Shown here: piece by piece, positions 29,027-33,478 of the stretch
How positions within the stretch are numbered: the stretch's first letter is position 1
How the letters are laid out: each line of letters opens with the position of its first letter
Notes under the pieces: model-generated
Database searches by the model: none
What the model was told of the DNA's origin: nothing
Seen by the model: only the letters and a program-made list of their open reading frames with translations
DNA from: Giardia intestinalis
Taxonomy: Eukaryota
DNA length: 64,000 nt
Direction: 5' to 3' (one strand)
Assembly (NCBI GenBank): GCA_000002435.2
Contig: CM018791.1
Program-made: the position numbers and the translations under genes

Positions 29027-29419
29027 TCAAAGAGATCTATTGTCGAGCTGGCAGCCTCGTTTCTTGCTGGCGTAGGTGCAGTTTTTCTAGTCCAGGCAGT
29101 CCACGCCAAATGCTGCACTGTACGCTGTCCTCTCTGTACTCTTTTTGGATCCAGTACGCAGGAGCAAAAGCCGACTTCTGGCGGCTGTTCTGGATCAAGC
29201 GATCCTAGCCAACGATGTGCAAACTGCACCTGTTGGAAGTCTCGGGTGGGCGACAAGTCAGCTGAGGCCAACTCTCAGCCGGGAATTTCCGTCCAGAAAT
29301 CTGGTCGAGTTGCTCTGAATCTTGCGGCGATAAATCCAGAGCAGGAGCTCCGTCAGGTTGGCGACGACTCTGCTTCGGGAGATGACGCGACTTATATGAT
29401 CTCTCAACCTCCTCTTTAA
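29027..29419 (+). CDS. Candidate small secreted/membrane ORF (131 aa). Weak support.
   Basis: ATG followed by a hydrophobic segment (SIVELAASFLAGVGAVFLVQAVHA) and Cys-rich residues. Lies in the 443-bp gap between the syntaxin start and the RPE 3' end. Could be non-coding. Confidence 0.2.
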   Translation, partial: SKRSIVELAASFLAGVGAVFLVQAVHAKCCTVRCPLCTLFGSSTQEQKPTSGGCSGSSDPSQRCANCTCWKSRVGDKSAEANSQPGISVQKSGRVALNLAAINPEQELRQVGDDSASGDDATYMISQPPL

Positions 29420-30141
29420 GCACGTTTACATGACACCATATGTTTTCTGAGTAGGGTGATGGGAATGCTTCTATCGGACGCCCCGAATATGTACGAGCCT
29501 GCCACGAAGGCGTCTATTCCACAGGAGCATGCATGATCTATCGTCGCATCCGAAATTCCTCCATCCACTTCAATCAGTAAATCGCTTCTCCTCTTTTTCA
29601 GCTGAATCGCCTTCTCAGCGGCCTCTGGGATATACTTCTGACCACCAAAGCCAGGCTCTACAGTCATAAGAAGAACCAGATCTAAGGCCTTTAACAAGTC
29701 GTCGCCAATGACGGAAGCTGGTGTCTTTGGCTTGATGGAAAGGCCTGCCTTGAGTCCGTGTGCCTTTATTTCCTCGACCAATCGAGCGCATGCCGTATTG
29801 ATAGCTTCCAGATCTTCGTCTGGATCTATGTATGGTGAGTTCCTACCAGAACGCACGGAGGGAGCCTCAATATGAAAGGTAAAGGTGGAAGCACCTGCCT
29901 TAGCGGTCGATGAAATCCAAAACCCTGGGTCATTGGTCATAAAGTGACAGTCTAAAAATGCGTTGGGGACGGCAGCATGTAGGGCACTGATGACGGGCGG
30001 GCCAATGGTCAGATTGGGGACAAAGTTTCCATCCATTACATCCACATGTAACCAGTCTGCTCCACAGTTGAGGACCTCCTGAGCCTCCTGTCCAAGCTTG
30101 GAAAAATCAGCTGAGAGGATTGATGGCGCAATCAACGTCAT
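29416..30141 (-). CDS. RPE: Ribulose-phosphate 3-epimerase.
   Basis: MTLIAPSILSADFSKLGQE…DWLHVDVMDGNFVPNLTIGPPV…MTVEPGFGGQKYI…VDGGI are hallmark RPE motifs. Confidence 0.9.
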   Translation of the reverse strand: MTLIAPSILSADFSKLGQEAQEVLNCGADWLHVDVMDGNFVPNLTIGPPVISALHAAVPNAFLDCHFMTNDPGFWISSTAKAGASTFTFHIEAPSVRSGRNSPYIDPDEDLEAINTACARLVEEIKAHGLKAGLSIKPKTPASVIGDDLLKALDLVLLMTVEPGFGGQKYIPEAAEKAIQLKKRRSDLLIEVDGGISDATIDHACSCGIDAFVAGSYIFGASDRSIPITLLRKHMVSCKRA

Positions 30142-30327
30142 TTGTTTTTAGCTATGCGAAGAAAGATTTAGGCTGCTGTGTAAATATTCACTCTAGTTAT
30201 TTTTCTTATGCACTGCCTACACCTTAGCTTTACTATGGCTGTTTACTGTGACTGTTTACTTAAGGCACGGTATACTCTGCAAGGAACTCCGGTGGTGCAG
30301 GATTTGCTAAATAAGATTCATCAGGGG

Positions 30328-30723
30328 CTACAAGCCACTGCAATCACGAATCTCTGCATCCTTACTCGAGACTCGAGGGTTGCGCCCCGGCTGGGAAGCG
30401 CGGGCCTCACGGCGGGCGGCGGGCTGCTCTGCGCACGCTCCCCTGCGGAGGCGGTGGCCGGGGGCGCACCGGTGGCAGTACTCCGGGACGGCGCAGACCG
30501 CGCAGTGCTCGACGGCGCAGGGCCCGGGGGTGCACGCCCGCCCGCCGTCTGCAGGGACCAGCTCGCCCTGGCAGCGCAGGCAGGCGGCGCCCGCGCACCG
30601 CTCGCAGCCGGGGACCGTCACCCCGCAGGGCAGGGCCGCGAGGAGGCGGAGGAGGCGTCCGGGCATCGGCGTGTTTTCGGCCAAAAATCTGGCGATGTCT
30701 ACGGCGCCCGCGACCTGGGACAC
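30328..30723 (-). CDS. Small GC-rich ORF encoding a Cys-rich (CXXC/furin-like) peptide with a possible signal peptide (start may be the second Met, MPGRLLRLLAALP). Coding frame uncertain.
   Basis: Lies in a roughly 78% GC island. Of the six frames, this one has GC1>GC2 with GC3 about 90% and a protein-like Cys pattern (CERCAGAACLRCQ…CAVEHCAVCAVPEYCHRCAPGH). The competing open frames encode Arg/Pro/Gly-rich strings. Confidence 0.3.
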   Translation of the reverse strand: MSQVAGAVDIARFLAENTPMPGRLLRLLAALPCGVTVPGCERCAGAACLRCQGELVPADGGRACTPGPCAVEHCAVCAVPEYCHRCAPGHRLRRGACAEQPAARREARASQPGRNPRVSSKDAEIRDCSGL

Positions 30724-31003
30724 GCACTGGGCGCGCCACTGGCGCCTGGCCTGGGACTACGTCCTCGGGGCCGCCGTGGCAGGGCTCCTCCTGGCGTGCG
30801 GGGCGCGCTCCCCGGGCCAGGCAGGGGACCCGGACCCCCGGCACAGCCCCCGGCGCCGCAGCTCCTTCGAGGGCCGGGCTCCCCCGCGCCGGCGGGAGAC
30901 GAGCGACCCCGACGTCGACTGCTCCGACTAGCCCGGGGCACGCGAATCCCATAAAGTGAACGTCAACGCTTTTCCGGCACAATCACCGGGTAGTTTATTG
31001 ATG

Positions 31004-31017
31004 GAGAAAAATAAATG
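31004..31017 (+). promoter_or_regulatory. AT-rich initiator GAGAAAAATAAATG (ATG included). Identical 14-mer at 32673-32686 and 49834-49847.
   Basis: Exact 14-nt identity directly at the start codon of three Cys-rich membrane-protein genes. Confidence 0.4.
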
Positions 31018-31761
31018 TGCTGCTGCGACGAGGACATCATCGCCCTCATCTGCGTGGGCATCCCGATGATCGCGTACGCGGTGGTAGTCGGCTTTCCGGG
31101 GAGAGACCCCAGCAAGGTTGGAGCGGCATTGAAAGAGTGTCTCAGTAACAAAAATGGTAAGAATCTCCTAGCCTGCATCAGTGAGAAGGGGGATAACTAC
31201 GGCGGCCTCTTCCTCTTCATAATGATTGTGGCCGTGATCTGCATCATCTACAGCATCGTCGTCCAGATCCTCAAGTGCGTCCTCTGCTGCTGCAGCTGCT
31301 GCTGCTGCGGGTGCTGCGGGTGCCTCGACTGCTTCCTCAAGTACGCGTTCCGCATCGGGGTCGGAGTCGGGTACCCCTCGCTCGCGGACTTCCTCACGTA
31401 CCTGATCACCTCCGTGCTGGCGAAGAACGGGAACGGTGGTAATACGTCGTTCAGCAACGCCGTGGGCGGCTACAGCGGGCTGTCGATGGTCTCCCTCGCG
31501 GCCGGCTGGGCCTTCACCGTGGTCATCGGCTCGTTCTTCATCCACAAGGACAGCTGCGGGCTGAAGTTCCTCGGGCTCATTCTGGGCTGCATCGTCGCCT
31601 TCGTCGTCATCGCGGCCATCGTCCCGGCGGGCCCCCGCGGCCTCCTTGAGGGCCCCTCCAACAAGTGGGCGGGCGTGGTCCTCGGGCTCGTCGACGTGGT
31701 AGTCTTCACAGCCATGTACGCCGCGGCGCTCTGCTGCCTGGGCGGCGGGTGCTGCAAGTAA
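31015..31761 (+). CDS. Polycysteine multi-pass membrane protein, paralog 1 (248 aa; MCCC N-terminus, CCCSCCCCGCCGC cluster after TM2, CCLGGGCCK C-terminus).
   Basis: Four to six predicted TM helices. Juxtamembrane Cys runs. Very GC3-rich codon usage. Initiator gagaaaaataaATG. Confidence 0.75.
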   Translation: MCCCDEDIIALICVGIPMIAYAVVVGFPGRDPSKVGAALKECLSNKNGKNLLACISEKGDNYGGLFLFIMIVAVICIIYSIVVQILKCVLCCCSCCCCGCCGCLDCFLKYAFRIGVGVGYPSLADFLTYLITSVLAKNGNGGNTSFSNAVGGYSGLSMVSLAAGWAFTVVIGSFFIHKDSCGLKFLGLILGCIVAFVVIAAIVPAGPRGLLEGPSNKWAGVVLGLVDVVVFTAMYAAALCCLGGGCCK

Positions 31762-31773
31762 ACGGCGCCCGGC

Positions 31774-32247
31774 CTACTGCTCGGTCTCCTCGTAGATCGT
31801 GATCTCGGAGCAGTCTGCGCACCGGAGCCCGCTGTCCTCCGAGACGGGGACCTGGAAGATCACCCTGCAGAAGCGCATGAACCGGTTTGCGTACGCGTCG
31901 CTCGGGACCGCGGAGATCCCGTCCTTGTCTGCGCACAGCCCCTTCGCCCTGCGCTCGACGTGCTTGATGCTCCTGAACTCGGTGAGGAAGTCGACGACGC
32001 CCATGTGGAGGACCCGGTAGTAGAGGGCCGACCCCCGCAGCGTGGGCCCCAGGGCGCAGGCGGGGGAGAACGCGTAGAGCCCGCCCTCCTCGCTGTGGAA
32101 GATGTCGCTGCTCTGGATGGCCGCCTCGAACGTGAAGCGGCGCCGGAAGACCTCCCGGAGGTACTCGTCGGGGGGCAGCGCGGCGAGGAACGCGGACGTC
32201 CCCCGGCTCCCCCCGGCCGCGATGCTGTGGCCCACCGGGGGCAGCAT
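31774..32247 (-). CDS. Hypothetical protein (157 aa) with extremely high GC3 codon usage.
   Basis: Of the frames in this GC-rich stretch, only this one gives a compositionally normal protein (…YLREVFRRRFTFEAAIQSSDIFHSEEGGLYAF…). GC3 is about 95%. The alternatives are Arg/Pro/Gly junk. Confidence 0.5.
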   Translation of the reverse strand: MLPPVGHSIAAGGSRGTSAFLAALPPDEYLREVFRRRFTFEAAIQSSDIFHSEEGGLYAFSPACALGPTLRGSALYYRVLHMGVVDFLTEFRSIKHVERRAKGLCADKDGISAVPSDAYANRFMRFCRVIFQVPVSEDSGLRCADCSEITIYEETEQ

Positions 32248-32683
32248 GTCCGAGACGTCCCGCGTGCTGAGGATGACTCTTCACCGATATTCCTTAGTAA
32301 GCTTAGTCAATGGTAAGTATAACGTCTTGTAGACGACGAGTGACAGTAATTCACCGTGTTTTCCCAGGGCCTCTAAACTAAGAGAGCCTGACAACAAAGT
32401 GCTCAAATTGCGGTTCAAGGCACGCATTATGAAGACATTGGCATCGCCGCTTTTTTAGGTTTCTGCGCCGGCCTACTAGGCAGTCAAAATAGTACAAAAA
32501 TTTCCAAATTGATGTTTAAACAATTTTAGATGTGCAAAGACTTTCATCGACCTCTTACTGGTTGACAGCGAATAGCTGTTTACACACAGAAATTCCGTTA
32601 TTGGTTTTCTTCGATAAATAAATTTCAAGAATCTTCGATTGCGCTGAATAAGTCAATGTTCCTTCAATCGTTGAGAAAAATAA

Positions 32684-33478
32684 ATGTGCTGTGATGAGGA
32701 TGTCATTGCCCTCATCTGCGTGGGTGTCCCGATGGTTGTGTATGCCCTGATTGTAGGGTTCCAGAAAAGGAACCCAGCTGCTGTTGGTCAAGCGCTAAAG
32801 ACTTGTTTTAATGACAACAAATCTATATGGAAAAAAGACCCTTTGAAGTGCCTTGCTGGTACTAAATATGGTGGCTTGTTTCTCTTCATAATGATCGTGG
32901 CCGTGATCTGCATCATTTACGGGATTGTTGTTCAGATACTCAAATGTATTTTGTGTTGCTGTAATTGTTGTTGCGGGTGCTGCGGGTGCCTCGACTGCTT
33001 CCTCAAGTACGCGTTCCGCATCGGGGTCGGCGTCGGGTACCCCTCTTTGATGGATTTTCTTACATATTTGATCTCTGCTTCGGTAGCGAAGAATAACAAC
33101 TGGGTAGACAACAATCTCTCCAAGAGAGGCGCATTCAACAATGCAGTGGGAGGTTACAGTGGCATATCAATGCTATCTCTTGCGGCCGGTTGGGTCTTCA
33201 CTGTGGTCATCGGCTCATTTTTCATCCAGAAAGACAGCTGCGGCCTGAAATTCTTAGGGCTTATTCTAGGTTGTATCGTCGCCTTCGTCATTATCGCAGC
33301 TGTTGTCCCAGCAGATCCTCGTAATTTATACTCTGGTAAAGCCTTTAACAATCAGCTTTTCATTAGCAAGGAAGCCAGGTGGGGCGGCGTTCTCCTCGGC
33401 TTCATCAATGTAGGAGTTTTCACAGGCATGTATGCTGCTGCCCTGTGTTGCTTGAACGGCTGCTGCTGTTGCAAGTAA
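32684..33478 (+). CDS. Polycysteine multi-pass membrane protein, paralog 2 (264 aa).
   Basis: Roughly three-quarters amino-acid identity with 31015..31761 by eye. Same MCC…, CCCNCCCGCCGC and …CCLNGCCCCK features. Ordinary AT-moderate codon usage, except for short stretches identical to paralog 1. Confidence 0.8.
   Translation: MCCDEDVIALICVGVPMVVYALIVGFQKRNPAAVGQALKTCFNDNKSIWKKDPLKCLAGTKYGGLFLFIMIVAVICIIYGIVVQILKCILCCCNCCCGCCGCLDCFLKYAFRIGVGVGYPSLMDFLTYLISASVAKNNNWVDNNLSKRGAFNNAVGGYSGISMLSLAAGWVFTVVIGSFFIQKDSCGLKFLGLILGCIVAFVIIAAVVPADPRNLYSGKAFNNQLFISKEARWGGVLLGFINVGVFTGMYAAALCCLNGCCCCK

Follow-up and report, generated by a model that had tools for sequence, protein, structure and literature searches.

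A Probable Unannotated Cysteine-Rich Gene and Its Divergent Membrane-Protein Partner in a GC-Rich Island of Giardia intestinalis

Within a 64,000-nt stretch of the Giardia intestinalis WB (ATCC 50803) genome (contig CM018791.1 of assembly GCA_000002435.2; termed here the window), a GC-rich island carries on its minus strand, from 30666 to 30328, an open reading frame (ORF) that is quite probably a genuine, unannotated gene. As read from the sequence, its predicted product is a small Cys-rich Giardia protein of about 80–110 aa with two furin-like repeats. It would be an unannotated gene of a known (furin/VSP) repeat kind, and further interest comes from a probable misannotation, a conserved divergent partner, and an apparent repeat-linked GC drive.

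The Minus-Strand Cys-Rich Reading Frame

The translation of this Cys-rich ORF (hereafter, the Cys ORF) reads MPGRLLRLLAALPCGVTVPG CERCAGAACLRCQGELVPADGGRACTPGPCAVEHCAVCAVPEYCHRCAPGHRLRRGAC..., and 12 Cys and four CxxC motifs fall within its first 78 residues (15% Cys in this 78-aa core, with 13 Cys in the full 112 aa). Besides a signal-like N-terminus and two furin-like repeats, the core contains a PCG(V/I)x(V/I)PGCE motif, and both this motif and the 12 Cys are invariant. In 5000 dinucleotide-preserving shuffles of the 228-nt core, the maximum in any frame was 10 Cys and none had 12, and four CxxC were attained in only 0.02% of the same shuffles. The remaining five frames of the island contain two to six Cys each and zero CxxC. 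The Cys pattern of the minus-strand ORF is far beyond chance. The openness and length of the ORF carry no weight, because at 75–80% GC all six frames are open throughout the island. Peptides predicted from the ORF after reduction and alkylation include CQGELVPADGGR and ACTPGPCAVEHCAVCAVPEYCHR. No entry for the ORF is present in any of the protein collections examined.

The first-pass annotation of this segment had quoted the translation, and re-reading gave the same letters, ending at the TAG at 30330–30328. Its upper limit, 30723, reflects a GTG start chosen by bacterial-style ORF logic and is discarded here; the sole in-frame ATG is 30666–30664, and this is most likely the true start. The proposed length of about 110 aa suits the WB ORF (112 aa) but not the conserved protein, which spans only about 78–98 aa: the last 34 residues in WB are unconserved in the second copy of the island and in other lineages. 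The reported ranking of GC content at the three codon positions (GC3 ≫ GC1 > GC2) was recovered, at 0.77/0.67/0.86 (GC1/GC2/GC3) across the complete ORF and 0.79/0.67/0.95 in codons 1–76, and the Arg/Pro/Gly-rich composition of the competing frames was found again on re-checking. GC1 exceeds GC2 on the proposed coding strands, and at third positions C exceeds G (0.64 vs. 0.30), as in neighboring real genes.

The absence of a transmembrane segment was likewise borne out, with no hydrophobic segment after the Cys-rich core in the WB ORF or its orthologs. The claimed signal peptide is only a plausible candidate: the hydrophobic N-terminus is convincing in an AT-richer lineage, L019 (MIKHLIYVLVSLYIRIVGLL...), but weak in WB and in assemblage E. 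Secretion of the Cys protein is only plausible, because this N-terminus is hydrophobic in L019 but shortened and Arg-broken in assemblages A and E (hereafter, A/E).

Orthologs, Conservation and Selection

A word-indexed protein search with the WB ORF alone gave no match at E ≤ 0.01; the ortholog has no 5-residue word in common with the WB ORF. An exhaustive HMMER search recovered one close homolog (P0052; E = 4.9e-17; 56% identity), in which all Cys are aligned. On its 1.4-kb contig (L018), the Cys ORF is accompanied by an ortholog of the WB gene GL50803_34968, which encodes a small membrane protein; the two are divergent and 43 bp apart. A profile search with this membrane partner yielded three proteins (P0070, P0071, and P0072) whose contigs carry the Cys ORF on the opposite strand. 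The ortholog loci considered, beside the assemblage A copies, are L018 (SRR22936437), L019 (ERZ28636381), and L020. L020 is assemblage E, with 100% identity to P15 contig ACVC01000099 across 190 nt. L019 has 45% GC overall and 76–80% identity to WB in the adjacent gene, and the identity between WB and assemblage B is 77% (PMC2723961). By this comparison L019 appears to be an AT-richer lineage of assemblage-B-like divergence, and L018 a further lineage.

The search for homologs in other Giardia assemblages, which the first-pass annotation had suggested, was positive: orthologs occur in E (L020), L019, and L018, and all 12 Cys are retained. The same data support its view that the minus-strand frame is the one that codes in this half of the island, with the ORF and 12 Cys kept in three other lineages and the proportion of nonsynonymous differences (pN) far below that of synonymous differences (pS). 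In a five-copy alignment, the four full-length copies agree at 12 of 12 Cys, and PCG, PGCE, CQGE, EYC, and G.R are likewise invariant. Between the distant lineages, pS is 0.68–0.80 (saturated) and pN 0.24–0.36 (about 0.27), and identity is 0.33–0.51 at codon position 3 vs. 0.56–0.73 at positions 1 and 2. In the 50%-GC ortholog of L019, the proposed frame contains no stops and each of the other five frames contains three to seven. Taken as a test for a conserved gene, the comparison finds the frame, start, and stop of the Cys ORF kept, pN well below pS, and the other frames closed. Near-identical assemblage-A isolates offered only 18 substitutions, and tallies of synonymous and nonsynonymous changes in the six frames did not single out any one of them.

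Horizontal transfer from a high-GC bacterium was considered as an origin and dropped, the Giardia orthologs being AT-richer and no bacterial homolog having been found.

Fold Prediction

The first-pass description of a furin-like, VSP-type CxxC module agrees with the profile comparisons. When the ortholog profile was compared with the PDB, the best matches were R-spondin Fu1-Fu2 chains (E 3e-4 to 4e-2), with both repeats aligned. With hhalign, the five-ortholog profile pairs with the 40-aa repeats of a VSP encoded elsewhere in the window (5167..9630) across 65 columns and both units (Prob 78%; E = 1.8e-5). The Pfam family Furin-like_2 (PF15913) is matched at the same position in all four orthologs at 14–18 bits (E 0.003–0.055), below the gathering threshold of 28 bits. 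An AF2 model made with a two-sequence alignment has a predicted local distance difference test (pLDDT) score of about 80–85 over residues 20–80, which form a string of beta-hairpins; made without an alignment, the model was useless (pLDDT 49.7). The top 34 Foldseek matches of the former model are all R-spondin Fu1-Fu2 (best E 8e-4). From these models and profiles, the Cys protein is predicted to be a free-standing module of two furin-like repeats, outside the VSP, HCMP, and R-spondin families. The earlier label of a "mini Cys-knot" finds no support in the predicted fold, which is a furin-repeat-like beta-hairpin ladder. Cystine-knot peptides have six Cys in a knotted 1–4, 2–5, 3–6 topology, and no cystine-knot family turned up in the Pfam, PDB-profile, or Foldseek searches of the Cys protein.

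The VSP-like repeat type also raises the prospect that the region is a truncated VSP/HCMP relic (an N-terminal fragment), or else non-coding GC-rich repeat DNA. The locus is indeed repeated and rearranged, and in assemblage B a decayed, stop-containing VSP-like sequence lies upstream of the ribulose-phosphate 3-epimerase gene (rpe), the neighbor of the island in WB. We nevertheless consider such an origin very improbable. In all four lineages the ORF has its own ATG behind an A-rich spacer, and its stop follows 4–8 codons past the 12th Cys, except in the rpe-adjacent assemblage-A copies (WB, L014, and L015). The depression of pN below pS at deep divergence and the strong period-3 GC signal also oppose a relic or non-coding DNA. 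VSP hallmarks are lacking, and Pfam VSP (PF03302) has no match at E ≤ 1 for the WB ORF or the three orthologs. An Rfam scan of the whole window returned zero matches, and the idea of an rRNA fragment or known RNA was dropped with it.

The Annotated Antisense Gene Model

Two gene models have been placed on the plus strand of the island: GL50803_101423 in the current protein set and GL50803_34968 in an older set only. The former reads directly antisense to the Cys ORF and continues across the ORF of the membrane partner. It is probably an antisense artifact of GC richness and a false gene model. Its GC1 (0.92) exceeds its GC3 (0.73), the mirror image of the sense frame on the other strand, whose GC3 is reflected in this GC1. 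Within the Cys region, the antisense frame is interrupted by one stop in L018 and three in L019, and it cannot span both halves of the island there. Its N-terminal 58 codons lie in unconserved intergenic DNA that differs between the two copies, and a 1-nt indel changes its C-terminal end in L014, L015, and the DH isolate. The predicted protein is Arg/Pro/Gly-rich, with no Pfam match and no homolog outside near-identical isolates, and Franzén et al. 2009 (PMC2723961) count it among three WB genes that GS (assemblage B) lacks.

The converse, a real GL50803_101423 gene with the Cys pattern of the minus strand as its antisense by-product, has some points in its favor: the model is retained in the current WB annotation (KAE8302977.1), its TAA is followed directly by AGTGAAC, much as Giardia stop codons overlap the poly(A) signal, and among close isolates its frame is slightly ahead in third-position changes (7 of 18). 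Set against the stops, the unconserved N-terminal codons, the altered C-terminus, and the mirrored codon-position GC described above, we judge this converse to be extremely unlikely.

The Divergent Partner and the Shared Spacer

The older model, GL50803_34968, begins with a conserved TWDTHWARxWRLAWDY that precedes its transmembrane segment and ends in the C-terminus RRRETSDPDVDCSD. The ratio of nonsynonymous to synonymous substitution rates (dN/dS) for this gene is 0.10–0.14 between distant lineages and 0.37–0.40 for A vs. E. Among current NCBI proteins it was sought and not found; only older protein sets contain it. Kept in four lineages, it looks like a real gene to reinstate.

The head-to-head layout of the Cys ORF and the membrane-protein ORF is conserved in at least four Giardia lineages. 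The spacer between the two start codons measures 28 bp in WB and 34–52 bp in L018, L019, and L020, with the layout kept, and neighboring genes have A/T-rich starts like those that flank it. This spacer may serve as a bidirectional promoter for the pair.

Transcription and Polyadenylation

The poly(A) signals of Giardia are AGUGAA and AGURAA (PMC3610916, PMC9014877). Two AGTAAAC motifs occur 68 and 81 nt past the stop of the Cys ORF; of these, one persists in assemblage E amid diverged DNA. The 13-nt tandem duplication that doubles the motif (30229–30260) is present in WB and L001-type isolates, and L014, L015, and P15 have a single copy. On the same strand, GL50803_112368 has a validated 3' untranslated region (3'UTR) of 1528 nt vs. 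a genome median of 59 nt (PMC9014877, Supplemental Table 1), a validated cleavage site being a QuantSeq peak together with a nanopore direct RNA read that reaches the upstream ORF (PMC9014877). Counted from the stop of GL50803_112368 at 31774 (31773 − 1527), the minus-strand poly(A) site comes to about 30246, which is 82 nt past the Cys ORF stop and directly behind the first AGTAAAC. Polyadenylated minus-strand RNA therefore covers the Cys ORF in WB trophozoites.

The 1528-nt 3'UTR also implies a minus-strand RNA (30246–32247) that runs antisense through the gene for TM248, a multi-transmembrane protein, and through the whole island. Expression entries for GL50803_101423 and GL50803_34968 were absent from the matches listed in the supplements of PMC3610916, PMC9014877, and PMC4807828.

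GC Content, Duplication and a Probable Inversion

The extreme GC of the island is a secondary feature of the A/E lineages. GC content of the Cys coding sequence rises from 0.50 in L019 to 0.67 in L018 and 0.77–0.81 in A and E, and that of the membrane-protein coding sequence from 0.53 to 0.66 and 0.79–0.80, respectively; in A and E, GC3 of both genes is 0.86–0.95. From L019 to A/E, the Gly/Ala/Arg/Pro fraction of the Cys core increases from 0.24 to 0.50, with the Cys residues fixed. The island and an adjacent block (TM248 plus a C-terminal fragment of PIP5K) are duplicated. In the full-length PIP5K gene (506 aa, L017:8001-9521), GC3 is 0.44–0.58 in the unique part vs. 0.92–1.0 in the duplicated part, and the jump sits exactly at the start of the latter. 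The enrichment in GC thus tracks repeated DNA, because GC3 in PIP5K is high only where it is duplicated. The most economical explanation for the island would be GC-biased gene conversion. A literature search for GC-biased gene conversion in Giardia, or for a described inversion at this locus, returned nothing relevant.

In DH (sub-assemblage AII; L017, AHGT01000002), the island is flanked by two inverted arms, each about 1.27 kb long, with 93% identity to each other. Assemblage E has two flank types of the island, and in the WB-like isolate L016 the island is joined to the alternative flank; L016 and contig breaks together suggest a second island copy in WB. The gene order is rpe-TM248-PIP5K157-TM264 in WB and PIP5K506-TM252-island-TM248-PIP5K157-TM264, adjacent to one another, in DH (window ~30375-32275 compared with L017:9020-12760). 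This order suggests that a segment of roughly 40 genes is inverted in DH relative to WB, with inverted copies of the island and TM248 at its two ends.

Short-read and draft assemblies (L001-L008 and L010-L013, from A, E, and B) all end ≤530 bp upstream of rpe, and those of A and E stop within the island or at its margin (~30451-30524). A repeat boundary, loss of coverage at extreme GC, or both would fit these breaks. In assemblage B (L010:1-532, JXTI01000026), the region upstream of rpe contains the decayed VSP-like sequence (KYYCSQC...NPVDGTCT...CQSCADGYF) with stops and no island. The gene pair appears to be located elsewhere in assemblage B; in L019, it is beside a 766-aa gene.

Counterevidence and Possible Decay

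Several observations weigh against a functional Cys gene as read here. At the level of the genomes, the lineage assignment of L018 and L019 relies entirely on their divergence. At the level of the fold, every Pfam match of the Cys ORF orthologs falls below the gathering threshold, only one of five AF2 models was confident, and the Foldseek TM-scores are only about 0.33. At the level of expression, validation of the only minus-strand RNA on record came from a nanopore read that reaches into GL50803_112368, and this RNA could be a read-through of ~2 kb on which the Cys ORF is not first. Translation of the Cys ORF is a prediction, unannotated ORFs being beyond the reach of proteomic searches. Lastly, there are the differences among the copies themselves. 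The C-terminal tail varies from copy to copy: DH ends in QPGHSP, assemblage E in ARRPP, L018 in LGVQ, and L019 in LKQIS (each followed by a stop), and the WB core runs on as ...CAEQP.... The hydrophobic N-terminal core is 8 residues shorter in A/E, by deletion, and interrupted by Arg. In the DH copy (L017:10981-10982), 24 nt between 9-nt direct repeats (tgcgccgtc) are deleted in frame, and one CxxC pair (EHCAVCAV) is lost with them. In the A vs. E comparison, the core pN/pS is about 0.8–0.95 (4–5 synonymous and 10 nonsynonymous changes), with no purifying selection seen; GC3 saturation lowers pS, and the ratio between A and E is therefore inflated.

These differences bear on a second explanation, in which the pair is ancestral and was once functional, and the Cys ORF of A/E (including WB) is now decaying under GC-biased conversion, held open by the rarity of stops at 80% GC. 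The pN/pS of the A/E core, the 8-residue deletion in the signal-like region, the loss of a CxxC pair in DH, the differing 3' ends, the six open frames of the island, and the doubled Gly/Ala/Arg/Pro content all favor decay. Against it, no full-length A/E copy has lost any of the 12 Cys codons, the ATG, or the A-rich spacer, and the reading frame survives both indels. Assemblage A by itself shows three synonymous vs. one nonsynonymous change in the core, and in L014 and L015 the core has 0–1 changes per 245 nt vs. about 3% in the rest of the locus. In addition, the artificially low pS discounts the A vs. E ratio, the ORF of the membrane partner is still constrained in that same comparison, and a poly(A) site is located where the Cys gene would need one. 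On balance, we regard decay as unlikely and favor an intact, conserved Cys gene.

Locus Features and Neighboring Genes

By exact look-up, the ORFs around the island are identical to the G. intestinalis WB proteins XP_001709967 to XP_001709974. The features of the locus are compiled in Table 1.

Table 1. Coordinates of the gene pair, its signals, and adjacent features in the window.
Feature	Position	Strand	Details
Small Cys-rich ORF, 112 aa	30328..30666	-	ATG 30666-30664, TAG 30330-30328
Conserved core, Met1 to Cys78	30433..30666	-	Sequence, ortholog alignments, pS/pN, furin-repeat similarity
C-terminal tail, 34 codons + TAG	30328..30432	-	Found only in rpe-adjacent copy; edge of duplicated block
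GL50803_34968, 78 aa, small single-pass membrane protein	30695..30931	+	Matches XP_001709971; ortholog alignment, hydropathy
Spacer between divergent ATGs, 28 bp	30667..30694	.	A-run ~9-14 nt upstream of each start (TTTTC...CAAAAAT)
Two AGTAAAC poly(A) signals (13-nt tandem duplication)	30241..30260	-	68-87 nt below stop of Cys ORF
AGTGAAC poly(A)-signal-like motif	30955..30961	+	24 nt past stop of membrane-protein ORF
GL50803_101423, 248-aa hypothetical protein (KAE8302977.1)	30208..30954	+	Current WB annotation; probably a false gene model
GC island, 75-82% GC, contains both genes of the pair	30375..30960	.	A/E lineages only; two loci per genome
Ribulose-phosphate 3-epimerase (rpe)	29416..30141	-	Neighbor of island
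Poly-Cys multi-transmembrane protein (TM248), GC3 0.90	31015..31761	+	Duplicated block
PIP5K C-terminal fragment, 157 aa, GC3 0.98	31774..32247	-	Duplicated block
Adjacent GC3-rich duplicated block	31015..32247	.	Inverted copy of 3' end of full-length PIP5K locus

TM248 and its paralog at 32684..33478 (+) have 72% nucleotide identity, and the PIP5K fragment lies between them. Both multi-transmembrane proteins contain runs of consecutive Cys (CCCDED..., CCCSCCCCGCCGC, ...GGGCCK), and GC3 is 0.90 in the duplicated copy vs. 0.56 in the non-duplicated one. The neighbors had initially been described as membrane Cys-rich proteins; they are a divergent small membrane-protein ORF and a poly-Cys multi-transmembrane protein, and no HCMPs are among them.

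At a distance from the island, the VSP at 5167..9630 (+) has a CRGKA tail and matches Pfam VSP at E = 3.5e-62. Its repeats (5284-9496) comprise 35.1 copies of a 120-bp, 40-aa Cys-rich unit; these copies are mutually 100% identical, which implies very recent expansion or strong homogenization. Two further ORFs were tried as BLASTP comparisons for the Cys ORF and were set aside as uninformative, since one (5110..9741, minus strand) reads the VSP repeat on its wrong strand and the other (3715..5109, minus strand) is a NEK-type kinase/ankyrin protein.

Proposed Function and Implications

The Cys protein would have a short, hydrophobic, signal-like N-terminus followed by VSP/HCMP-type CxxC repeats and no membrane anchor. 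It may enter the endoplasmic reticulum and form six disulfides there, and it may then be exported to the parasite surface or the medium as a stable furin-repeat module. It could act together with GL50803_34968, a membrane partner that would be co-regulated through the shared bidirectional promoter. The gene pair lies in or beside an inverted duplication, where GC-biased conversion may have pushed third positions to about 95% GC and enriched the positions other than Cys in Gly, Ala, Arg, and Pro.

A more ambitious and, in our estimation, doubtful extension is that the pair constitutes a two-piece surface protein. A secreted ectodomain of two furin repeats and a separate membrane anchor with a conserved acidic, phosphorylatable tail would be co-expressed and would associate at the membrane; the pair would also form the core of an inverted-repeat recombination hotspot that flips about 40 genes (WB/DH), with GC-biased conversion having raised GC from 50% to 80% in A/E. 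If true, this would be direct genomic evidence of frequent homologous recombination in a parasite without observed meiosis.

The predicted Cys gene and its partner bear on the reference annotation of a major human parasite, in which GL50803_101423 is probably spurious, the discarded GL50803_34968 is probably real, and one conserved gene would be missing. Small Cys-rich exported proteins are candidates for the host–parasite interface, and proteomic and transcriptomic pipelines that depend on annotation are blind to the Cys ORF. The locus may also serve as a natural example of local GC pressure that makes long false ORFs on the wrong strand and masks the true gene, and of a protein remodeled by GC pressure with its disulfide scaffold spared. 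The combination of GC3 saturation with an inverted duplication that marks a sub-assemblage inversion opens a way to test for recombination and biased gene conversion in Giardia.

Comparison With Known Systems

GC-biased gene conversion is described in yeast, mammals, birds, and plants. The Giardia island is like these cases in that GC3 of 0.9–1.0 is confined to duplicated segments and the shift is lineage-specific. Bidirectional Giardia promoters are covered in PMC3610916, with reference to Teodorovic et al. 2007. Like those promoters, the candidate described here is a short A/T-containing spacer with an A-run ~10 nt upstream of each ATG; unlike the known ones, which yield sterile antisense RNA, both of its directions reach conserved coding genes.

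The Cys protein has the repeat unit of the VSP and HCMP proteins, C-x4-(H/N)C-x2-C-x5-7-C-x2-C-xPG(Y/H)-x8-10-C. It is also like a VSP in its N-terminal hydrophobic leader (signal-like in the Cys protein, and weak in WB) and its four CxxC. It differs from VSP proteins in having only two units in about 80 aa and in the absence of a C-terminal transmembrane helix, a CRGKA tail, and GGCY. Unlike the variable VSP multigene repertoire, the Cys gene is a single-copy-type ortholog conserved across lineages, and its product is paired with a separately encoded small membrane protein. With regard to the HCMP family, the Cys protein has at least 10% Cys with CxxC or CxC. HCMP proteins are reportedly large, usually >400 aa, with a transmembrane domain, whereas the Cys protein has 78–112 aa and no transmembrane segment after the leader.

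In R-spondins, which act through LGR4-6 and ZNRF3/RNF43, a TSP1 domain and a basic C-terminus come after Fu1-Fu2; LGR and ZNRF3/RNF43 partners are not known from Giardia. The Cys protein is like R-spondin Fu1-Fu2 (PDB 4c8v, 4kt1, 4bso, and 8xfp, among others) in having two furin-like repeats in succession, with comparable length and Cys spacing, and the two have in common GCxxCxxxxxCxxCQ... and C.(V/I)EHCxxCxxxxYCxxCxxGxxLxxGxC. Unlike R-spondins, it has no thrombospondin domain (there is no Pfam match to TSP1 in the WB ORF or its orthologs) and no basic tail, and in most copies it ends 4–8 residues past repeat 2. The resemblance to R-spondins is at the level of the generic furin-repeat fold and not of the family.

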